Below, one piece after another: positions 10,294-18,975 of a DNA stretch of 64,000 nt. The position numbers and the translations under genes are program-made. The stretch covers positions 35,673 through 99,672 of the forward strand of contig JAQWBS010000005.1 in assembly GCA_028706255.1 (NCBI GenBank). Reading direction: 5' to 3'. Source of the DNA: Alphaproteobacteria bacterium. Lineage in GTDB: Bacteria > Pseudomonadota > Alphaproteobacteria > RF32 > CAG-239. The stretch's first letter is position 1, and each line of letters starts with the position of its first letter. The notes beneath the pieces were generated by a model. The model was given only the letters and a program-made list of their open reading frames with translations, did no database searches and was not told where the DNA came from.

Positions 10294-13200
10294 ATGGGAA
10301 TGTTAAATAAGAAAAAATATTTAGCCAGAAGAATTACGGACTATGTCGGAACAGCGATTTTTGCTTTCTTGCTCATTTTTATATGGCAACTTTATCGTTC
10401 GCCAATTCCATTGCCTTTCTTAAAGCCATATATCATCAAAGCCTTGAATCACGATAGTCAGGAATATGCTGTGGCGGTTGAAAGTGTGAACTTAGAATTA
10501 GTCCGCTCCATTCAGCCAATTAAGATTATTGCTCGAGAGGTTGAATATAAAAACAATAAAGGTAGCATTTCAATTAATGCACCAAGAATTGAAATTTCAT
10601 TCAGTGTACGTGCCTTAATTCGAGGCATAATTTCGCCGAGTTCTGTTGTGTTTGATAGCCCATCTGTTTCCGTTTTTACCAACTATGGTGAAACAGATAA
10701 AAGTTCTGAAATGAGCTTGAATGAGAAAAAAATCGGCTATTATTTCGACACTTTCAATCGCTTCATTGAGCGTTTCAATTCGCAAGATTTATCTTATCCT
10801 GAAAGTTATATCAATTATATTGCCATTCAAAATGGTGATTTTGAGTTTCATGAGGTTGACCTTAATCGAAACTGGAATTTTGTTAAAGCAAATTATGTGT
10901 TTGATAGGGATAGAGAAGATATAAACATTGGCATTGATGGTAATTTGATGATGGGTGAAGAAGCTGTTCCGCTTGATTTTGATTTGAAATATATGCCAAA
11001 AGTTGAGAAAGTTGACATTGATTTAGCCTTTTCAAATTTCTTGCCCTCAAAGGCTGTGGAAGCTTTTATTTCCGAGCAAGAACAAGCTGCAATCTATAAG
11101 GTTGATGTGCCAATTAATGGCAAACTTGACATTCTTGTCGATTTTAAGAAAGTTTTACAAAACAAGAATAATATCTCTAAGAGTTTAGACACTGCTGTTG
11201 AAGACTTCAAATTTAGATTTGAAGGAGATGATGGCAAAATTGCTTTTTCTGATAATGAAGCGTTTAACTATGACATTAAGGCATTTAGTTTGTCTGGGGA
11301 AGTTGACAGTGGCTTAAATGAAATTAAAATTTCTGATGCGCAGTTTGATATGGGAGAGAAGTCGACTTCTTTGAGTTTATATATTTCAGGTTTTAAAAAT
11401 TTATTACTCAAGAGTTCAATGAAAGACTTGAAAATTACGCTCAAGACTGAAGTTGAAAAAATGAATTTTAGCGAATTGCCTCGTTATTGGCCACGCTATA
11501 TTGCTGAAGATGCTTGGATTTGGGTTAAAGAAGGGATTTATGAGGGAGAAATTAAGGACGCTGCTTTTGCGTTTGAATTTGCTTATGACGCTAAACAAAA
11601 AGGACTTGCTTTCAAAAATTTAAGTGGAGAAGGAAAAGTCGAAAATGCCTCTTTGAATTATCTTGAGGGAATGCCTCATGCGCATAAAGTTTTTGGAAAA
11701 GCCACCTTTTATAATGATAAAATTGATATAAAAATTGATAAGGGTGAATCTGTTGGGAATAAGCTCACAGATGGACGTGTGATTTTATATGATTTAGATA
11801 AATATGATAACTTCATAGATATTCAACTTTCAGCAACTTCTTCCATTCCTGACGCTTTAAAGTTGATTGATAGCCCACCTTTGGAATTTGCAAGTGAAAT
11901 GGGCATTAAACCAGATGATATTTCTGGAAAAGCTGAAATCAATCTTAAACTAGATTTTGAATTAAAGAAAACTTTGACACCTGAAGAAGTGAAAGTGGCA
12001 GTTCAGTCCAAACTTTCAGATGTTACCATTAAAAATATTATCAAAGATAAAATCATCAAAGGGGATAGACTTGATTTGTCTGTGAATAATAAAGAAATGG
12101 TGGTGCGTGGTGATGTTGTGATTGATGAACTTCCAATGAATTTGGTTTGGCAAAAGCCTTTTATGAATAATAAATATCTCAATAAATATGAACTTTCATT
12201 TGATTTGAATACGCATATGAAGAAAAAACTAGGTTTTGATTTTGATATTTTGAAAGCCCCATATTTTATTGGCGATACCAAAATTAAGGCGAATGTGCTA
12301 GAAGTGAAAACAAATAAGTTTAAAGTCAATTTTGCTTCAGATTTGCTTGAAAATGAGATAAATTATGCCTTCCTTGGGTTTCTTAAAGAAAAAGGCGTGG
12401 TCGGAAGTTTGAATTTTTCCGTTGATGTGGAAAATGACAAAGTGAAAAAAATTAATGAGATAAAACTCACTAAAGAAGATTTTGAAGTTGAAGCTTCAAT
12501 GGATTTGAACAAAAAAGGTGAAATTGAAACCATTGATATCACGAAAGTGAAAGGACCCAAAACAAGTGCCAAAGCTAAGGTGATGATGAGCAAAGTGAAT
12601 GGTCAAGAACTAATTAAAGTGAACATTTCTGGATTGAGCTATGACATTTCTAATCTTTTTGAGATAAATATTAAAAGCAATGAAAAAACAGACTTAGATC
12701 CTGAAGAATATCTTAAACAAATGCCAAATACGGACATTAACATTGCCGTGGATAGCTTATGGACAAACAAAGAAGTTCCTGTGACGAACTTTGCGGGAAA
12801 TATGAAAATCAGGAACAAAATTGGCATTGATGAAATAAAAATGGTGGGCAATTTTGCGTATGTTAAAGATTCAAATTTCAGGTTTGAATATCTGCCAAGA
12901 GAACAAGGTGAGCATCTCATTAATGTCACCAGTAGTGATGCTGGAAAAGCTCTGAAAATTTTGAGGCTATATGACTATATGAATGGGGGAGATTTAAAAA
13001 TTTCTGCGCTTAAAGAAAAAGATGGTAAAATTGTTGGGCATGCCAAAATTAGAAGTTTTAACATCTTAAACACCAGTTTGTTGGCAAAAGTGGTGAGTAT
13101 GGCATCTTTAACAGGCATTATTAACACGTTGAGCGGTGAAGGAATTGCTTTTTCTCACCTTGACGTGCCATTTGAATTTGATGGTAGTGTGATAGAGATG

Positions 13201-13491
13201 AAAGAAGCAAAAGCTTTCGGAAATGTGTTGGGAATTTCGGCAAATGGTTATTATGATTATGACACAAGCCGTATAAAACTGGGAGGAATGCTTGCCCCTG
13301 CTTATAGTATCAATCGTTTTCTGGCAGGAATTCCACTGGTTGGAAGATTGCTTTCAGGAAAAGATGGCACAGTCTTTGCCGCGAGCTATCGTGTTTCTGG
13401 GGATGCGGAAAACCCTAAAATTAAAGTTGATCCACTTTCGGCAATTAGCCCTAATTCTATTAAAGAGATGTTTTCTAAAGATGAAAATTAA
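10294..13491 (+). CDS. AsmA-family / DUF3971 large envelope protein (AsmA_2 C-terminal domain)
   Basis: N-terminal TM; 1065 aa; C-terminal region (…GISANGYYDYD…GGMLAPAYSINRFLAGIPLVGRLLSGKDGTVFAASYRVSGDAENPKIKVDPLS…) matches the conserved tail of AsmA/YhdP-like proteins. Confidence 0.6.
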   Translation: MGMLNKKKYLARRITDYVGTAIFAFLLIFIWQLYRSPIPLPFLKPYIIKALNHDSQEYAVAVESVNLELVRSIQPIKIIAREVEYKNNKGSISINAPRIEISFSVRALIRGIISPSSVVFDSPSVSVFTNYGETDKSSEMSLNEKKIGYYFDTFNRFIERFNSQDLSYPESYINYIAIQNGDFEFHEVDLNRNWNFVKANYVFDRDREDINIGIDGNLMMGEEAVPLDFDLKYMPKVEKVDIDLAFSNFLPSKAVEAFISEQEQAAIYKVDVPINGKLDILVDFKKVLQNKNNISKSLDTAVEDFKFRFEGDDGKIAFSDNEAFNYDIKAFSLSGEVDSGLNEIKISDAQFDMGEKSTSLSLYISGFKNLLLKSSMKDLKITLKTEVEKMNFSELPRYWPRYIAEDAWIWVKEGIYEGEIKDAAFAFEFAYDAKQKGLAFKNLSGEGKVENASLNYLEGMPHAHKVFGKATFYNDKIDIKIDKGESVGNKLTDGRVILYDLDKYDNFIDIQLSATSSIPDALKLIDSPPLEFASEMGIKPDDISGKAEINLKLDFELKKTLTPEEVKVAVQSKLSDVTIKNIIKDKIIKGDRLDLSVNNKEMVVRGDVVIDELPMNLVWQKPFMNNKYLNKYELSFDLNTHMKKKLGFDFDILKAPYFIGDTKIKANVLEVKTNKFKVNFASDLLENEINYAFLGFLKEKGVVGSLNFSVDVENDKVKKINEIKLTKEDFEVEASMDLNKKGEIETIDITKVKGPKTSAKAKVMMSKVNGQELIKVNISGLSYDISNLFEINIKSNEKTDLDPEEYLKQMPNTDINIAVDSLWTNKEVPVTNFAGNMKIRNKIGIDEIKMVGNFAYVKDSNFRFEYLPREQGEHLINVTSSDAGKALKILRLYDYMNGGDLKISALKEKDGKIVGHAKIRSFNILNTSLLAKVVSMASLTGIINTLSGEGIAFSHLDVPFEFDGSVIEMKEAKAFGNVLGISANGYYDYDTSRIKLGGMLAPAYSINRFLAGIPLVGRLLSGKDGTVFAASYRVSGDAENPKIKVDPLSAISPNSIKEMFSKDEN

Positions 13492-13954
13492 AAGTCTTAA
13501 AATTGGACTGGATTTTCATGGAGTCATTAATGAGCATTATAAATTTTTTGAAGAATTTACGTCGCTTGCTTTAGCGAGAGGGCATAAAATTTTTGTCATT
13601 AGTGGAGGAAAAGGGGCTGTCTTGAAAAAAGAGTTGGCAGAGCACAACATTAAATATAGTGAGCTTTATTCTCTTTATGATTATTTTTCAGCATTAGGTT
13701 TGGTTGAAACGTTATCGGATGGCAGGTTTTATGTTGATGAAACTTTGTGGAACAAGCAAAAGGCAATTTATTGTTTGGAACAAAAAATTGATGTCCATAT
13801 TGATGATAGCATAGGATATTTACATAATTTTGAAACAGATTACTATCATTGCAATCCAGAGCAAAAGAAATGTTTTTGCTCTTGCCAAAAAGAAGTTCCA
13901 TTCTTTGTTAATCCGCACTTAGCCCTTCAGGAGATTGAAAAGACCTTTGGTTAA
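13481..13954 (+). CDS. Hypothetical protein (158 aa); start overlaps the stop of the AsmA-family gene
   Basis: ATG at 13481 overlaps the upstream stop (13489-13491); weak HAD-like LDFHGVI / VHIDDS motifs; the ORF-track extension to 13292 overlaps the previous gene and is rejected. Confidence 0.4.
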   Translation: MKIKSLKIGLDFHGVINEHYKFFEEFTSLALARGHKIFVISGGKGAVLKKELAEHNIKYSELYSLYDYFSALGLVETLSDGRFYVDETLWNKQKAIYCLEQKIDVHIDDSIGYLHNFETDYYHCNPEQKKCFCSCQKEVPFFVNPHLALQEIEKTFG

Positions 13955-13959
13955 TGACC

Positions 13960-14190
13960 TCAATCAAAGGTCTTTTTTGCATAATCACGATATGCTCTGA
14001 GCAATTTTTCAAGCTTAATTGGGTTGAGTTCTTTCTTCTTTAATTTTGCAATATCTTTCGTTTTATTCAGACAAACTGCATTGAGCCATTTTTTATCATA
14101 GCTTATGTTTTGTTGTAAAAAATTATATCTATTTTCAAGTTCGTTGAGGGTTTCTGAAGCTCCCTCAAGATAAATTTTATTGTTTCTCAT
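13960..14190 (-). CDS. Hypothetical 76-aa protein co-transcribed downstream of the phage repressor
   Basis: 3-nt gap from the repressor stop; charged, helical; no family recognised. Confidence 0.4.
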   Translation of the reverse strand: MRNNKIYLEGASETLNELENRYNFLQQNISYDKKWLNAVCLNKTKDIAKLKKKELNPIKLEKLLRAYRDYAKKTFD

Positions 14191-14193
14191 TTT

Positions 14194-14802
14194 TTACTGA
14201 CTTACCCATAAAATTCGATTGATTTCTTTGATTTTGCTAATTTCTAAGCTAATTTCTTTTTGTTTATCATTTAGCTCTATAATTTCGATTGTGCGAGCTG
14301 TTCTGCGAATAAATTCACCGATAAAAATGTTTCCATCAGAATATTTCACAAGGATTCGGTCTTTGCGTCTGGTTTCAGAATTTTGAGAGAGAATTAGAAT
14401 TGAGCCAATGTCATAAATGAGGGTTTCACAATCAATTTCTATGGCATAAAGCTTGTCTTTACTGTCTGGAAATTTGATTTTTTTTAGATAAGTCTTATCC
14501 TCTAAAAGCTCAGCATTTTCTTCAAGTTTTGAGAGCTCAACATAAGGAATATTGTGCGCTAAACTCTTGGGAGAAGATGTTTTTCCTAAGTTATAAAACT
14601 CTTCAAAACTGATGTGACAAGATTCGATAATTTTTTGAATACTATCTAAAGAAGGGAATCTTTTCTTTCCATCAGGTCTTGTTCTTTTGCTTTTATTGAA
14701 GGTTGTGGAGTCAAGCCCTGCTTTTTTTGCGAGTCCGGAAGCTGATAAACCATTTGCTTTGGCTAAGTTATCAACAGCGTCCCAAATTTTTTCGTGATTC
14801 AT
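14194..14802 (-). CDS. Phage CI/LexA-like repressor (N-terminal XRE HTH, C-terminal S24-like peptidase domain)
   Basis: HTH segment LSASGLAKKAGLDSTTFNKSKR; C-terminal β-rich domain with a LexA-like layout (…IGSILIL…LVKYSDG…); divergent to the + strand phage genes. Confidence 0.7.
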   Translation of the reverse strand: MNHEKIWDAVDNLAKANGLSASGLAKKAGLDSTTFNKSKRTRPDGKKRFPSLDSIQKIIESCHISFEEFYNLGKTSSPKSLAHNIPYVELSKLEENAELLEDKTYLKKIKFPDSKDKLYAIEIDCETLIYDIGSILILSQNSETRRKDRILVKYSDGNIFIGEFIRRTARTIEIIELNDKQKEISLEISKIKEINRILWVSQ

Positions 14803-14967
14803 GTTATCTCCTTAAAATCAAGCTATTAACGATTATGTCACTCATTATATATCAAATATAAATAGGAATCAAATCTTTTTTTGATTGAAATTCCTACAAC
14901 CTTATGTATAACCTCATACAGTTAATAAACTATTAATAATATTATACAACTAAAAGGAGTTTTGCTA
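14803..14967. promoter_or_regulatory. Divergent switch region between the repressor and the early operon (candidate operators and promoters)
   Basis: AT-rich 165 bp; inverted repeat AATCAAA-N7-TTTGATT; AAGGAG SD 8 nt before ATG 14968. Confidence 0.4.
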
Positions 14968-15297
14968 ATGGGGAGAATGTATGAGCCTTTTGAGAATGCA
15001 GAAGAGGTTTGGTTCTGGTTTTGCAGTAGCCTTATCAGCCAAGAAGACGGTTGGCGTGCCATGGGTGATTATGGGGGAAAAGAACGTTGTTGCGAAATCA
15101 ATGATATCTATCGAATTATTAAGAGGTTGAAGCTTTGTCACGAAACATCTAATCGTCATTTAAGAGTTGCTCTGAAATGGGGTAAGGAACTGACACCGCC
15201 ATATTATGCTAAAAGAGCAAAGAGAAGCGAAGTGAGAATCTGGGGGGAATTTATCACGGCTTTAGAAACTGCTTTGAAGAAAAAAGGAATTATATGA
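14968..15297 (+). CDS. Hypothetical phage early protein (110 aa, Trp/Cys-rich)
   Basis: Good SD (AAGGAG) then ATG; first gene of the operon divergent from the repressor; no family recognised. Confidence 0.5.
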   Translation: MGRMYEPFENAEEVWFWFCSSLISQEDGWRAMGDYGGKERCCEINDIYRIIKRLKLCHETSNRHLRVALKWGKELTPPYYAKRAKRSEVRIWGEFITALETALKKKGII

Positions 15298-15704
15298 AAA
15301 TGAATAATGCTATAAGCCAAGAAATTTCAGAATATTATGTTGTGTTTATTGATGAAACAAGCCTGTGGTGGTTGAGGTTTTTGAAAAAAGGCTTTCGCCA
15401 TTGTTATTTGCTTTTTCAGATTGATGAGGGAATGACATGGGTTGAAGCGAATCCTATGTCTAATCGTTTTTTCTTTTGTACCTATTCGTTTTGTGAAAAA
15501 GTTGATTATATTGCGGAGCTTAAAAAACAAATGAACTGTGAAATAATTTTACAAAAAGTTGAAAATGTTGGTTTAAAAATCGCACCGCTTAGTTTTTTTT
15601 CTTGTGTGGAATTTGTCAAGAGAAGCTTGGGGATTCATAGCTTTTGGACAATCACACCTTATCAGTTGTATAAAAAATTAAAGATTGTAGGAAAAAAGTC
15701 TTGA
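15294..15704 (+). CDS. Hypothetical phage early protein (136 aa)
   Basis: Start overlaps the previous stop (ATGA), so the two are translationally coupled; no family recognised. Confidence 0.5.
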   Translation: MKMNNAISQEISEYYVVFIDETSLWWLRFLKKGFRHCYLLFQIDEGMTWVEANPMSNRFFFCTYSFCEKVDYIAELKKQMNCEIILQKVENVGLKIAPLSFFSCVEFVKRSLGIHSFWTITPYQLYKKLKIVGKKS

Positions 15705-15767
15705 CAAATGGTTTTTTATATGTTACACCCTTAATTGTCACTAGGGAGTAGTGTATCTAAAATTTAT

Positions 15768-15800
15768 AAAGCTCAGTTGTTTAACTGGGCTTTATTTTTT
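15768..15800 (+). terminator. Rho-independent terminator between the early genes and the tail genes
   Basis: AAAGCTCAGTT-GTTT-AACTGGGCTTT stem followed by ATTTTTTT. Confidence 0.5.
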
Positions 15801-15867
15801 TAGAAAAATGGTGAAGTGGTTTTTAGTCTTTCTTTTGGAAAGGCTATTTTTTTTATTTAGGTGTTTT

Positions 15868-16476
15868 ATGAGCGAGAAGAAAATTAAAACAATTAAGGCT
15901 TTGAAAACACGTTTGAAGAAAACTTTAAGTATTTGCTCTAAAGCTTTATTTAAGCTTGGAGTTGATGGCATTGTTTCCTTTGAAGAAGGAACAGCAGAGG
16001 CGGACATTTCCAACAATCTGTTTGGGTTAATCCGTGATGGGCTTCTTTCTTCATATCCTTGGAGTTTTGCCACTGCACAAAAAAGATTGCCACGCCTTTC
16101 TGAAAATCCGTTAGCAGACTATAAATATGCTTATCTGTTGCCAAACGATTATTTGCGAATGATATCCGCAGGTTCAGGCACAAGAGGGCTTGGGTTAGAG
16201 TATCGCATTCAGAAAAATATGCTACATACTAACGCAGAAGAGGTGGTAATTACTTATATTTTTCGTCCGAAAGAGGAAGATTTTCCTCCGTTTTTTTGCG
16301 ATGTTTTGACCACAAAATTGGCGTCAGAATTTTGTTTGCCGCTCACGGAAGATAATGCCAAAGCAAATATTTTAATTAAAAGGGCTGAAGAAGAAATTAA
16401 AAATGCTCGATTAATTGATTCTCAACAAGCAACCCCGAAAAAGTTTGAAGATTTTACCTTGGTTGAGGTGAGATGA
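15868..16476 (+). CDS. Podovirus tail tubular protein A (T7 gp11-like)
   Basis: Translation aligns by eye along its length with T7 gp11: W-[ST]-F block, DYL-x-[LM]-[MI]-S block, …FPPFFCDVLTTKLASEF… versus …MPECFRYWIVTKASRQF…, and an acidic EEE block. Confidence 0.6.
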   Translation: MSEKKIKTIKALKTRLKKTLSICSKALFKLGVDGIVSFEEGTAEADISNNLFGLIRDGLLSSYPWSFATAQKRLPRLSENPLADYKYAYLLPNDYLRMISAGSGTRGLGLEYRIQKNMLHTNAEEVVITYIFRPKEEDFPPFFCDVLTTKLASEFCLPLTEDNAKANILIKRAEEEIKNARLIDSQQATPKKFEDFTLVEVR

Positions 16477-18374
16477 TGGCGAATATGTTTTCAGTTAAAA
16501 CAAATTTCACAGCAGGGCAAGTTTCTGAAAAAATTTTTGGACGAGGAGATTTAGGGGTTTATGAAAATGGGGCAAGAACTTTGGAAAATGTCATCATTCA
16601 ACCAACAGGCGGTGTTTCAAGAAGAAAAGGCTTGAAATTAGTTGATGAAGTTGAGGCAAAAGCAAAGCTTATTCCATTTGAGTTTAACGTGAATCAGACT
16701 TATCTTTTGTGCTTGTTTAACAACAAAATGCGTGTTTATAAAGATGATATGTTGATTGCTGAAATTGCCACGCCTTGGGCAAATGACCAACTTAATCAAC
16801 TAAACTGGACACAAAGTGCGGATACGCTTTTGGTGGTTCATCCTGAAGTTGCACCTAAGAAAATTACCAGAAATCTTGATGAGGTTTGGAAGGTGGAAGA
16901 TTGGGAATATTACACAAAAGATGGCATGGTTTTCTGCCCTTATTATAACTTTTATCAAAACAGAAATAATTTGCAGTCAAGTGGCACAAGTGGAACAGTG
17001 ACCTTAACAGCAACGGAAGATGTTTTCAGCACAGGCTATGTGGGGGTAATGATAAAACTTGGAACAGGGCTGGTAAAGGTGACGGAATATCTCACCACAA
17101 AGACAGTGAAGGCTTTGGTTTTAAAAAATGTGACAACAACAAGCACAAATGAATGGGAAGAACAGTCTTTTTCACCACTCAGAGGTTATCCAAGGTCGAT
17201 TACTTTTCATCAAGACAGGCTTGTGATTGGTGGCTCTAAAGGCTTGCCCAATCGATTGTGGTTTTCTAAGTCGTCAGATTTATTTAATTTTGACTTAGGC
17301 ACAGGGCTTGATGATGAGGCAATTGAATTTGCCATTTTGTCAGACCAAATCAATGCTATCTGCAATCTCGTTTCCAGCCGTCATTTGCTGATTTTTACCA
17401 CAGGGGCAGAATGGATGTTGTCTGCGGAAACTTTAACGCCAACCAGCTTAGTCTTGAGTTGTCAAACCAATACGGGAAGTTATGGGAAGAATAATCTCTT
17501 ACCGCAACAGATTAATGGGGCGACAGTGTTTGTTTCTAAAAATGGCAAGCAATTGCAAGAGTTTTTATATACAGACACCGAACAGGCATATTTAAGCAAA
17601 GACTTAAATTTGTTGGCAGATAATATTTTACAACAACCGCTTTCAATTGCTTTTTCACAATATGAAAATGTGGTTTATTTGGTGTTGGAAGACGGCACGG
17701 TTTCGGCTTTAACAACTTATCGAACGGAAGAGGTTAATGCTTGGAGCAAGCTTAAAACTTCAGGAGAATTTGTTTCTGTTGCCGTTATTGGGGAAGAAAT
17801 TTATTTTGCTGTGGCAAGAGGAGAAAGATTCTTTATTGAAAGATTTAGCGACACTTTTTTTGCGGATTGTGCAGTTGAATTAACAAGTGAGGATAATCAA
17901 AGCCATTGGGAGGGATTAAGTGTTTACGAAGGGCAAGAGGTTTGTGTTTCCTCAAAGGGGTATAATCTTGGGAAATATATTGTTCAAGATGAGGCAATTG
18001 ACTTGTTTGAGGAAACATCAAAGATTTATGTCGGACTTCCATATGAACATCTGATTGAACCTATGCCTTATATGATGGAAAATATCAAACCAATGCCGGT
18101 TAAAGGACTGCGTGTGGTGAATGCTTTATTTAGATTAATCAACAGCAAGTCTTTTAGGCTTAGATTGGCAGATGAATATGTGACTATTCCTCTAAAGAGA
18201 ATGTATAAAGACCAAATTTTAGATGCTCCTGCAAATAATTTTTCCGGAGACATTAATGTGCGTTCTTTGAAGTGGCTCAGAGAGATGAACTTGCCCATGT
18301 GGAGCATTAAAAGTGATGAACCTGTGGCGTTTAATCTGCTTTTGGCAGCAATGGAAGTGAAAATTAAAATTTAA
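16473..18374 (+). CDS. Podovirus tail tubular protein B (T7 gp12-like)
   Basis: Start overlaps the gp11-like stop (ATGATGG); N-terminal GGVSRRKGLKL and PNRLWFSKSSDLFNF blocks resemble the T7 gp12 motifs GLQKRP and RNRLGF…FNFYP; position immediately after the gp11-like gene. Confidence 0.5.
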   Translation: MMANMFSVKTNFTAGQVSEKIFGRGDLGVYENGARTLENVIIQPTGGVSRRKGLKLVDEVEAKAKLIPFEFNVNQTYLLCLFNNKMRVYKDDMLIAEIATPWANDQLNQLNWTQSADTLLVVHPEVAPKKITRNLDEVWKVEDWEYYTKDGMVFCPYYNFYQNRNNLQSSGTSGTVTLTATEDVFSTGYVGVMIKLGTGLVKVTEYLTTKTVKALVLKNVTTTSTNEWEEQSFSPLRGYPRSITFHQDRLVIGGSKGLPNRLWFSKSSDLFNFDLGTGLDDEAIEFAILSDQINAICNLVSSRHLLIFTTGAEWMLSAETLTPTSLVLSCQTNTGSYGKNNLLPQQINGATVFVSKNGKQLQEFLYTDTEQAYLSKDLNLLADNILQQPLSIAFSQYENVVYLVLEDGTVSALTTYRTEEVNAWSKLKTSGEFVSVAVIGEEIYFAVARGERFFIERFSDTFFADCAVELTSEDNQSHWEGLSVYEGQEVCVSSKGYNLGKYIVQDEAIDLFEETSKIYVGLPYEHLIEPMPYMMENIKPMPVKGLRVVNALFRLINSKSFRLRLADEYVTIPLKRMYKDQILDAPANNFSGDINVRSLKWLREMNLPMWSIKSDEPVAFNLLLAAMEVKIKI

Positions 18375-18389: not shown

Positions 18390-18770
18390 ATGGGAGCAAC
18401 GGCTTTAACAGTAGCTGCTGTGGCAGCTTTTGCAAATCAAAAACATACTGAAAGAAAAACTAGAAGTGCAGAGTTGAAAAGTATACGAAGGCAACAGGCA
18501 ATTAATGAGGCGAAAAAGAAGAATATTTTAGAAGGACAATTGGCAGCAAGAAGAGCCAAAGTTGGAAGTTTAGGAATTTCAACTTCAGGGTCAAATGTTG
18601 CTGTTCAAAATAGATTGGTGGGAGATGCTCAGCGTGAAATTTCTTATGATAATTGGGGCTATCAGGATAAATATGCTCAAGTCTTTAATAATTATCAAGA
18701 CAAAATAAGGAGCGAAGCTATTGATTATGCCCCAAAAGTTTATAATTATGTTGAGAAAATGATAAAGTAG
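18390..18770 (+). CDS. Hypothetical phage protein (126 aa); an internal-virion-protein-like slot after tail tubular B
   Basis: Strong SD (AAGGAGGAAAATATG); positional analogy to T7 gene 13; no sequence family recognised. Confidence 0.45.
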   Translation: MGATALTVAAVAAFANQKHTERKTRSAELKSIRRQQAINEAKKKNILEGQLAARRAKVGSLGISTSGSNVAVQNRLVGDAQREISYDNWGYQDKYAQVFNNYQDKIRSEAIDYAPKVYNYVEKMIK

Positions 18771-18780
18771 GAGAATTGGA

Positions 18781-18975
18781 ATGCCACGAAAAAAAGAAAC
18801 TTATTTGGAAAAAAGAAAAAAAGCTTATCTGAAAGAAATTCCAATTGAAGAGCAATTAGATGCTATCTTAAAAGCTTTTGATATGGTTTTACAGGAAGAT
18901 GGCGTTTTGCCTTATGAACTAATTGATGTGATTGAAAAATGGCAGAAGATTAAGTTTAAATTTCCCAAAGAATGA
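18781..18975 (+). CDS. Hypothetical small protein (64 aa)
   Basis: SD GGAGAATTGGAATG; Lys-rich; no family recognised. Confidence 0.4.
   Translation: MPRKKETYLEKRKKAYLKEIPIEEQLDAILKAFDMVLQEDGVLPYELIDVIEKWQKIKFKFPKE

Follow-up and report, generated by a model that had tools for sequence, protein, structure and literature searches.

Processive antitermination is known from a short list of systems, namely N, Q, put, AlpA and GafZ. In the lambda Q/pR′/tR′ arrangement the small regulator gene Q ends 44 nucleotides (nt) before a strong sigma-70-type late promoter, the leader transcribed from that promoter (~194 nt) ends at an intrinsic terminator ahead of the late genes, and further terminators lie within the late operon, implying processive read-through. 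In Caulobacter, RogA represses gafYZ, and GafY and GafZ give activation and antitermination of a phage-like gene cluster (PMC11150451). Here we describe a locus that resembles both, found in a 64,000-nt stretch of DNA (the window) from an alphaproteobacterium of the RF32 lineage (contig JAQWBS010000005.1, positions 35,673 to 99,672). A CI-type repressor gene (Rep) diverges from two small genes, open reading frames ORF1 and ORF2, which are followed by a late promoter, a conserved leader element, two intrinsic terminators and the late genes that remain of a podovirus-type cluster (Table 1). We propose that the locus works as an antitermination switch under the control of the repressor, and ORF1 is our leading candidate for the antitermination factor; this is a reading drawn from sequence to which we give somewhat less than an even chance.

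The layout of lambda Q recurs here: a small gene immediately precedes a strong late promoter of the sigma-70 type, the short leader ends at an intrinsic terminator ahead of the late genes, and further terminators lie within the late operon. The details differ: the TGA stop codon of ORF2 overlaps the −35 element, TTGACA, of the near-consensus late promoter; the leader measures 30–100 nt; the conserved site is initially transcribed (roughly +1 to +22) rather than lying between −35 and −10; the late promoter, unlike pR′, also has a repressor-type operator; and ORF2, the promoter-adjacent gene here, has homologues in phage head modules. The likeness to GafYZ is a functional analogy. In both systems, each from Alphaproteobacteria, a repressor stands over a two-gene operon, one motif is common to the regulators' own promoter and the cluster promoter, and a cluster without replication genes is, or here would be, expressed by terminator read-through (PMC11150451). 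Unlike the Caulobacter gene transfer agent (GTA), the cluster described here is podovirus/T7-like and not RcGTA/HK97-like, its regulators adjoin it, and its repressor is CI/LexA-like; the consensus −35 element of the late promoter moreover implies no activator, unlike the GafY/GafZ system.

The terminators of the window lie 36 and 94 nt past the late −10 element and are followed by the first late gene. An earlier note on this DNA, made from the letters of the window, had ended the ORF1–ORF2 operon at a hairpin and T-run and had wondered whether this could be an antitermination-controlled early/late boundary. The hairpin and T-run were confirmed, with a 13-bp stem; a simple operon end they are not, since a promoter of their own overlaps the ORF2 stop codon. 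The boundary idea has become the best-supported reading, given the conserved terminator ahead of the late genes.

Between the promoter and the first terminator lies the leader element, which in the window comprises block 1 (TCACT) and block 2 (AGTGTATC), the latter fixed 20–23 nt after the −10 element. The window contains one copy, where none is expected by chance, and each related locus contains one or two; in ~45 loci of the gut clade, the relatives carried by gut Alphaproteobacteria, the non-coding stretch that follows ORF2 is near-identical, wherever the ORF2 stop codon falls. A regular expression for the late module, which combines TTGAY-N17-19-TAnMnn with the leader beyond it, has matches in 78 distinct loci that range from gut metagenome-assembled genomes (MAGs) of 35% GC to Rhodospirillales of 60–65% GC, according to the plan TTGAC, a 17–19-nt gap, TAnAnn, TCAAC/TCACT and nTGYRnC; the TGYR of block 2 falls 20–23 nt after the −10 element in 69 of them. 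When 36 diverse copies are aligned (alignment A4), invariance is limited to the −35 element, the TA.A of the −10 element and the TG of block 2, and the spacer varies freely. With an nhmmer profile the module was found in 115 of 166 sources, on the sense strand in every case.

The copies of the module follow ORF2 in 95 cases and lie elsewhere in 26; those elsewhere immediately precede either the capsid gene (Azospirillum-type loci, Micavibrio) or the p64–portal genes. Where the late genes are split, each operon has a module copy of its own, in which the leader is the same while the spacers and terminators differ; two copies are present in L148 (at 1186 and 7277), in L154 (at 10385 and 14436) and in L043 (related loci are given by such numbers throughout). 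As a separate observation, the two copies of L154 (Terasakiella) are parted by an insertion of ~4 kb (10473–14399), also seen in L130 and L142, which carries three opposite-strand genes for proteins of ~250 amino acids (aa) with similar N-termini and, by eye, Sel1-type repeats, together with a 479-aa gene; it looks like cargo captured inside the switch.

By strict criteria, a hairpin followed by a T-run occurs within the 200 nt downstream of 55% of modules, compared with 6.2% of random windows, at a median gap of 10 nt. The predicted folding energy of the 135-nt leader in the window is −38 kcal/mol, or z = −5.7 relative to shuffled sequences. Equivalents of terminator 1 with an unrelated stem sequence are present in most gut-clade relatives and in several distant clades, and tandem terminators are found also in L084, L114, L116 and the second copy of L148. 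The ribosome-binding site and ATG of the first late gene come within ~10–30 nt past the T-run in relatives, and because the ribosome-binding site abuts the T-run, every late transcript must cross the terminator, whether it starts at the early or the late promoter. A further terminator recurs after the capsid/p85 genes in 39 of 100 loci, which fits a processive mechanism. A known RNA family was rejected: an Rfam search (E ≤ 1) over positions 13000–17000 returned sub-threshold matches only, on the terminator (MicC, 31.5 bits against a gathering score of 90).

According to the mechanism that we propose, Rep would hold the early and late promoters through TAGGAA/TTCCTA operators, and would be joined in most clades by host LexA. 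Once repression is lifted, the early promoter would make the ORF1–ORF2 pair, and transcripts from the late promoter, each starting with the conserved ~22-nt 5′ element, would run into one or two intrinsic terminators ahead of the late genes, such that late (packaging, head and tail) expression would need terminator read-through. ORF1, perhaps in a complex with ORF2, would modify RNA polymerase at the leader element, enabling it to pass these terminators and, still modified, to pass the one after the capsid genes as well. The switch would thus be a lambda-Q/GafZ-like form of processive antitermination made from unrelated proteins. The cis-architecture is conserved, duplicated and co-occurs with ORF1; which protein acts at which site, and that a protein mediates read-through, we infer.

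A fuller proposition joins three claims: that ORF1, with or without ORF2, founds a new family of processive antitermination factors; that it would load at TCAAC/TCACT...GCnAGnAnTGYRnC and not at the promoter spacer; and that it would be the master switch of an unrecognised, podovirus-derived, vertically inherited GTA-like system, SOS/LexA-gated in most clades, that ranges over Rhodospirillales, Micavibrio, Terasakiella, Magnetospirillum, Azospirillum and gut Alphaproteobacteria. Taken jointly these claims are tentative, and we think it rather doubtful that all of them hold. Should the proposed switch itself prove right, the known systems of processive antitermination would be joined by one whose protein family and type of loading site are both new, and whose parts are few: one operator, one leader and one or two small proteins.

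ORF1 and the late module are found together in 102 informative sources, ORF1 alone in 14, the module alone in one and neither in five, counts that are phylogenetically non-independent. That non-independence, and the 14 ORF1-positive sources that have no module, are the first of several points that tell against a switch worked by ORF1. Neither ORF1 nor ORF2 shows similarity to antiterminator or DNA-binding families in Pfam, NCBIfam or the PDB. Homology to lambda Q was rejected (hhalign probability 0.1%), with no relation in sequence or fold to Q-lambda or Q21, and the structural matches of ORF1 to Q21 (6p1a and 6p19; template-modelling (TM) score 0.36, E 4.7–8.6) are insignificant. The homologues of ORF2 in Vibrio phages lie within a late head module, which argues against ORF2 as a factor needed before late transcription. 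Lastly, the register of the leader hairpin varies by clade, which leaves an RNA-structure signal unproven. In the window the leader element folds as CACTA-GGGAG-TAGTG, and in the gut clade as CACT(A)-N5-7-(T)AGTG; a universal leader RNA hairpin was rejected, as the best stems of other clades stand in different registers relative to TGYR. Also rejected was a LexA box within the leader, the spacing being unlike that of GAAC-N7-GAAC. As to TGYG, which lies at about +15 to +18, a position close to that of the lambda pR′ pause, we take it to resemble the 3′ part of the consensus elemental pause.

A further objection is that the late promoter has an operator, so that derepression together with leaky termination could suffice. 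This is the core of a minimal CI/Cro switch, in which ORF1 would be a Cro-like repressor of the Rep promoter, committing the element to expression, and there would be no dedicated antiterminator; the late promoter would simply be derepressed on the departure of Rep from its TAGGAA operator, the terminators would be leaky attenuators or insulators by which expression ratios are set, and the leader would serve mRNA stability or translation. The resemblance to CI/Cro immunity regions is real in that a repressor and a first early gene diverge from an operator-bearing intergenic region, and in that the repressor of most clades combines a helix-turn-helix (HTH) with a Peptidase_S24 self-cleavage domain. 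ORF1 occupies the classical position of Cro, as the first gene divergent from a CI-type repressor, but it lacks a Cro/HTH_3-type domain and, at 109–140 aa, exceeds typical Cro size: no HTH family matched ORF1 at E ≤ 1, and no Cro/C1-type HTH was found in 33 family members. The remote-homology and structure comparisons that the earlier note had called for brought up no Cro or antirepressor homologue for ORF1 or ORF2. The near-consensus late promoter needs no activator, and an operator-like motif is common to both promoters and falls within the late spacer in some clades, both as a CI/Cro switch would have it. Terminators after capsid genes, too, are common in phage late operons; strong terminators placed downstream of a promoter at a median of 10 nt past the leader, in independent copies, are hard to explain as insulation, and the leader sequence is kept across a 30% range of GC content, beyond what a stabilising hairpin needs. 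In further contrast to CI/Cro immunity regions, non-gut elements bear a host LexA box at the early promoter, the repressor of the gut clade is non-cleavable, and genes for an integrase, an excisionase or replication are missing alongside. We regard the minimal CI/Cro switch as unlikely.

ORF1 and ORF2 are real genes and not chance open reading frames. The two genes beside the repressor that the earlier note had picked out exist, are conserved and overlap (the first protein has 109 aa), and they lie just downstream of a divergent promoter next to the CI-type Rep, as expected if, as that note proposed, the repressor controls them directly. ORF1 is upstream of and adjacent to ORF2 in 147 of 163 fetched loci, mostly with a 4-nt overlap, and the overlapping ATGA indicates that ORF2 is translationally coupled to ORF1. 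In L011 and L148, Rep, ORF1, ORF2 and the late module shift as one cassette. Among the matches listed, all species-representative carriers are Alphaproteobacteria; they include gut MAGs (CAG:495, Ca. Scatocola), Micavibrio, Terasakiella, Magnetospirillum, Azospirillum and Skermanella. The cultured genera among these make the question experimentally accessible in Terasakiella, Magnetospirillum, Azospirillum, Skermanella and Micavibrio. Pfam has no match to ORF1 or ORF2 (E ≤ 1) or to 33 and 73 members of their respective families, and NCBIfam, PHROG, PADLOC and PDB sequence searches with ORF1 and ORF2 were equally empty, in keeping with the earlier failure to recognise a family for either. By these comparisons they represent two undescribed protein families. 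Confident AlphaFold2 models of both were obtained, with a pLDDT (predicted local distance difference test) of 88 each.

The ORF1 protein contains five Trp and four Cys residues, has an isoelectric point (pI) of 9.1 and is modelled as four helices. It has 33 close homologues (49–66% identity), and a profile search of 1.84 billion proteins yielded 409 cluster representatives; the family is marked by an invariant EEVWFWFC motif and by a conserved RHLRV..WG helix. Foldseek found nothing significant in the PDB (best E 2), and a LuxR-type HTH was discarded, the matches being insignificant. ORF1 is confined to the chromosomal elements, and it is the prime candidate for an element-specific regulator; its small size, its basic and helical character and its position, overlapping or directly adjoining ORF2 in the majority of loci, were also counted in favour of ORF1 as the factor.

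For the ORF2 protein (pI 8.9), 73 close homologues were found, and its relatives number at least 499 among species-representative genomes and 435 in IMG/VR. Invariant positions comprise R35-H36-C37, C104-V-E at the N-terminus of a helix, K109 and T121-P122; in the alpha/beta model, the helix of residues 104–112 starts with Cys104. Foldseek gave no match in the PDB at E ≤ 0.001, and the structural relatives in BFVD (TM 0.67–0.75, E down to 2e-7) are uncharacterised proteins of uncultured phages. The order of the His36...Cys104-x-Glu motif had suggested a permuted NlpC/P60 (LRAT-like) papain-fold enzyme, an idea that was rejected since neither LRAT nor NlpC/P60 occurs among the top 50 Foldseek matches in the PDB and Pfam gave no match.

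Homologues of ORF2 occur in 49 isolated Vibrio podophages of ~32 kb (A2 profile, E 4e-22), in which FHHC, SCVEFVK and ITPYQL are retained and the gene lies between the large terminase gene (TerL) and a p64-like gene plus portal. In MG592509, the one phage examined, the homologue NVP1138O_03 overlaps both neighbours, including the TerL stop codon. This phage shares with the elements described here the synteny of ORF2, p64-like gene, portal, scaffold, capsid, adaptor and nozzle; unlike in the elements, its ORF2 homologue follows TerL in a single co-oriented late module, and no ORF1, Rep homologue or late module was found in it. The order TerL–ORF2–portal is seen also in the environmental contigs L008, L069, L078 and L079, in which searches for ORF1 and the module gave no match, and non-gut elements keep the order ORF2–p64–portal, as in the Vibrio phages. 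The presence of ORF2 in Vibrio podophages and environmental contigs indicates that it is an ancestral gene of the podovirus head/packaging module. ORF2 is thus probably not a classic early regulator; the suggestion that it fills the early slot of a temperate phage as a Cro, antirepressor or toxin gene does not sit with the place of its homologues, which lie between the genes for terminase and portal. A Cys/His enzyme and a morphogenetic factor are the alternatives that may apply.

Taken further, this becomes a rival explanation in which ORF2, and perhaps ORF1, would assist head assembly or DNA packaging as a morphogenetic factor or an enzyme and not act as a regulator. ORF2 could, for example, be a Cys/His enzyme or a zinc protein that targets the neighbouring p64-like protein, portal or terminase; its place beside the repressor would then follow from the ancestral phage genome having been opened between TerL and ORF2. 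The gene order in the Vibrio podophages, environmental contigs and non-gut elements fits this, as do the uncharacterised phage proteins that make up its BFVD relatives, and in the model the invariant strand His and helix-N-terminal Cys suggest catalysis or metal binding, though the fold matches no known enzyme. Less easily accommodated is the late module, which in 95 sources, about half of them with a detectable hairpin and T-run, keeps ORF2 on the early side and parts it from the structural genes; ORF2 is therefore expressed with ORF1 from the early promoter. In rearranged elements ORF2 stays with Rep–ORF1 and not with p64–portal, in the window it is intact, with all invariant residues present, despite the loss of terminase, portal and capsid, and ORF1 has no phage counterpart, so that half of the pair would go unexplained. 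Such an accessory role is, in our judgement, improbable.

The gene that follows ORF2 in the Vibrio phages and the alphaproteobacterial elements (p64-type) encodes a small low-complexity protein that starts MG(S/G) and continues ..S.PK.P; examples are L167 (= MG592509) 1964–2828, L134 10421–10684 and the p64 genes of many loci. Its N-terminus presumably resembles that of T7 gp6.7, an ejected head protein. The conserved adjacency raises the idea that ORF2, as a Cys/His protein, might modify the p64-like protein. PHROG searches with the small conserved genes of the cluster (p63, p64, p75, p85, TerS-like) matched families of unknown function only.

In the proposed switch one repressor would gate both promoters. 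An inverted pair, TAGGAAT and ATTCCTA, overlaps the −35 elements of the divergent promoters in the window and is kept in every gut-clade relative. In distant clades a palindrome, TAGGA-N6-TCCTA, lies beside TTGAC at the early promoter, and it is found at the late promoter too, either abutting the −35 element or within the spacer. One motif at both promoters suggests that a single protein, most simply Rep, probably gates both, and binding of Rep to TAGGAA/TTCCTA operators at the two promoters is predicted. Over the whole window TAGGAAW is not enriched (18 found against 19.4 expected); what is meaningful is only that it clusters locally at these promoters and is kept among relatives. The early promoter elements, as read from the sequence, are in register across gut-clade loci; the promoter scan demands T at the last −10 position and hence leaves the early promoter, TATAAC, unlisted.

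Rep homologues outside the gut clade have an HTH and a Peptidase_S24 domain (E 1e-25), and those of Terasakiella, Magnetospirillum and others retain the catalytic residues. No Peptidase_S24 match was obtained for Rep of the window, L001 or L003, and an alignment of Rep proteins (A3) shows that in the gut clade, the window included, the GDSMEP serine, the catalytic lysine and the Ala-Gly site are all lost. Window Rep therefore appears to consist of an N-terminal HTH and a degenerate, catalytically dead S24-like C-terminal domain. This version of Rep is accompanied by the 76-aa gene, which is co-transcribed downstream; its homologues (labels w76/s85) occupy the same position in most gut-clade loci, are found in the gut clade only, and gave no match in Pfam, NCBIfam and PADLOC scans.

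The early promoters differ correspondingly between clades. The LexA box consensus of Alphaproteobacteria is GTTCN7GTTC (PMC12700426), and one or two such boxes lie downstream of the early −10 element in ten loci (L016, L018, L019, L043, L130, L132, L134, L144, L147 and L148), implying direct host SOS control, as predicted from these sites, besides that by the element's own repressor. With an S24-bearing Rep and a LexA box at the early promoter, the non-gut elements look SOS-inducible twice over. The gut clade has GTTAA-N6-GTTAA in place of the GAAC-N7-GAAC or GTTC-N7-GTTC of other clades.

The loss of the Ser/Lys dyad and the Ala-Gly site from gut-clade Rep means that another route of induction is needed there, and ORF2, or ORF1 and ORF2 together, might supply it as an antirepressor that inactivates Rep, for example by proteolysis, in place of RecA-dependent self-cleavage. 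The conserved His/Cys pair of ORF2 would suit such an activity, but ORF2 matches no protease or Ant/KilAC family. The two genes are, moreover, equally conserved where the S24 domain of Rep is intact, an ORF2 homologue is carried by an isolated Vibrio phage without a detectable Rep homologue, and an antirepressor controlled by its own target would offer induction no entry point. We consider this explanation very unlikely.

Beside an immunity gene, small, unannotated, basic proteins such as these could also be cargo (morons), that is anti-defence, superinfection-exclusion or toxin genes, as the earlier note had likewise entertained. Cargo is normally variable, whereas this pair is found, with few exceptions, throughout the element family in different orders of Alphaproteobacteria, and its divergence parallels that of host and structural genes (r ~0.9); real cargo insertions sit elsewhere, as do the Sel1-type tandem-repeat genes of L154. 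PADLOC gave no match, and there is no sign of a defence or anti-defence role. A cargo function seems to us scarcely credible.

The element itself is not the ordinary temperate phage that the earlier note had assumed: it is vertically inherited, lacks an integrase and, in the present genome, is undergoing decay. The cluster occupies one site in 28 gut-clade genomes, with amiC, PBP1, prfB, a hydrolase and yhdP on its left; on the right, a small membrane protein and arsR follow in the window and in L084. Pairwise identities of element genes and host genes are correlated (r = 0.86–0.97), with mean values of 85% for the capsid protein and 75% for the portal, against 82% for prfB and 74% for PBP1 of the host. 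The element genes are thus conserved to the same degree as housekeeping genes, in line with vertical inheritance under purifying selection. Between yhdP and the arsR-side flank, with every gene accounted for, there are no integrase or replication genes, nor are there any in the 14.7-kb non-gut version (L023 plus L165), which carries TerS/TerL, a SleB-type lysin, a tailspike and a GTA_holin_3TM-family protein. The clusters, of 11–15 kb, are of podovirus/T7-like type, with a PF12236 portal, a T7-type scaffold and tubular proteins A and B. A fixed site, co-divergence with the host and the want of integrase and replication genes fit a domesticated, GTA-like element better than an ordinary prophage, and the cluster is a candidate for a GTA-like particle system of podovirus descent.

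In the literature we found no description of a podovirus-type GTA, or of this cluster in Rhodospirillales. The GTA families of the classification known to us are all of other lineages, and to our knowledge a podovirus-type cluster would be new. In Azospirillum (A. lipoferum and Azospirillum sp. B510), mitomycin-C-inducible particles with ~10 kb of random host DNA, and unexplained 13-kb 'prophage' regions, have been reported (PMC3899980). Azospirillum genomes carry the SOS-boxed cluster (L156, L159 and IMG isolate contigs such as L015 and L033), which may connect it with that report; the cluster may be what lies behind the old particle observation.

Two further observations concern the non-gut version. 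At the cluster end, L165 (4475–5062) encodes a protein matching Pfam GTA_holin_3TM (E 5e-10), and at 13–1818 a 601-aa tailspike with a pectate-lyase fold; both are absent from the gut-clade cluster, the fibre and lysis functions of which, the SleB-type hydrolase aside, may be elsewhere or absent. Some carriers seem to be misnamed: L085/L001 (JAISVX010000003.1, an 829-kb contig) was deposited as 'MAG: Lactobacillaceae bacterium' and has alphaproteobacterial synteny (amiC, PBP1, prfB and yhdP plus the cluster), so it is probably mislabelled or mis-binned, and L119 ('Lactobacillus sp.') shows the same apparent mislabelling.

In relatives, Rep, on the minus strand, diverges from ORF1 and ORF2, which are followed in order by a 104-aa TerS-like gene, a T7-type TerL, a 75-aa gene, a SleB-type lysin, two small genes, portal, Bbp19, a T7-type scaffold, capsid, an 85-aa gene, tubA, tubB, a 126-aa gene and a 64-aa gene. 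The first late gene of the window is a fusion: its residues 1–20 share 85–90% identity with the start of the TerS-like protein in L001 and L003, and its residues 20–202 share 72–81% identity with residues 5–188 of tubA. A TerS-like start has thus been joined in frame to tubA, with the loss of ~6.5 kb, terminase through capsid, at a junction near 15925–15930. The tail genes that the earlier note saw next to the hairpin do follow it, as tubA and tubB, but their adjacency is an artefact of this deletion; the hairpins, lying upstream of the original first late gene, are ancestral and not products of it. The cluster is decaying in this genome and partly in L084. The element of the window is a remnant unable to build heads, and its switch now controls only the TerS′–tubA fusion, tubB and two small genes. 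The closest relative, L084, shows a different partial deletion, with TerL truncated and the genes from the 75-aa through the 64-aa gene gone.

Table 1. Positions of the genes and regulatory features of the locus within the 64,000-nt window.
Feature	Position	Strand	Details
76-aa gene	13960-14190	-	downstream of Rep, co-transcribed; no family match
Rep, CI-type repressor, 202 aa	14194-14802	-	phrog_4 transcriptional repressor, E 2.8e-5
Probable Rep promoter	14872-14844	-	listed by promoter scan
Candidate operator, inverted pair	14863-14896		TAGGAAT 14863-14869; ATTCCTA 14890-14896; overlaps the -35 elements of the divergent promoters
Early promoter of ORF1-ORF2	14885-14912	+	-35 TTGAAA 14885-14890; 16-nt spacer; -10 TATAAC 14907-14912
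Direct repeat GTTAA-N6-(A)TTAA	14921-14939	+	just after early -10
ORF1	14968-15297	+	ATG 14968 to stop; 109 aa; GGAG 9 nt upstream of ATG
ORF2	15294-15704	+	136 aa; ATG overlaps ORF1 stop (ATGA)
Late promoter	15688-15729	+	TAGGAAAAAAGTC 15688-15700 (operator-like); -35 TTGACA 15701-15706; 17-nt spacer; -10 TACACC 15724-15729
Conserved initially transcribed element TGTCACTAGGGAGTAGTGTATC	15736-15757	+	starts ~7 nt after late -10
Intrinsic terminator 1	15766-15801	+	13-bp stem at 15766-15795, 4-nt loop, T-run
Intrinsic terminator 2	15824-15854	+	10-bp stem (15824-15846) and T8; then ribosome-binding site, ATG 15868
TerS′-tubA fusion gene	15868-16476	+	tubA, tail tubular protein A (adaptor); phrog_394, E 3e-47
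Tail tubular protein B (tubB, nozzle), intact	16473-18374	+	phrog_376, E 1e-140
126-aa and 64-aa genes, last of cluster	18390-18975	+	right end of L084 identical

The tubB homologue of L003 bears a weak Phage_nozzle annotation. Comparison of the region with DNA of isolated phages gave only one weak match (67.8%), to an unannotated faecal contig. To the right of the cluster, from ~19.0 kb, follow host genes for an 81-aa membrane protein, arsR, a P-type ATPase, proS, lpxA/I/B and leuA. Its left neighbour is the yhdP/asmA-type gene, and between the two lies a gene of ~157 aa (13481–13954, plus strand) that matches phrog_13623, of unknown function (E 8e-13), with a weak HAD-like match; its listed open reading frame overlaps the end of yhdP owing to an upstream TTG start. 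The gene is present in the window and most gut-clade relatives and absent from L001 and L003.

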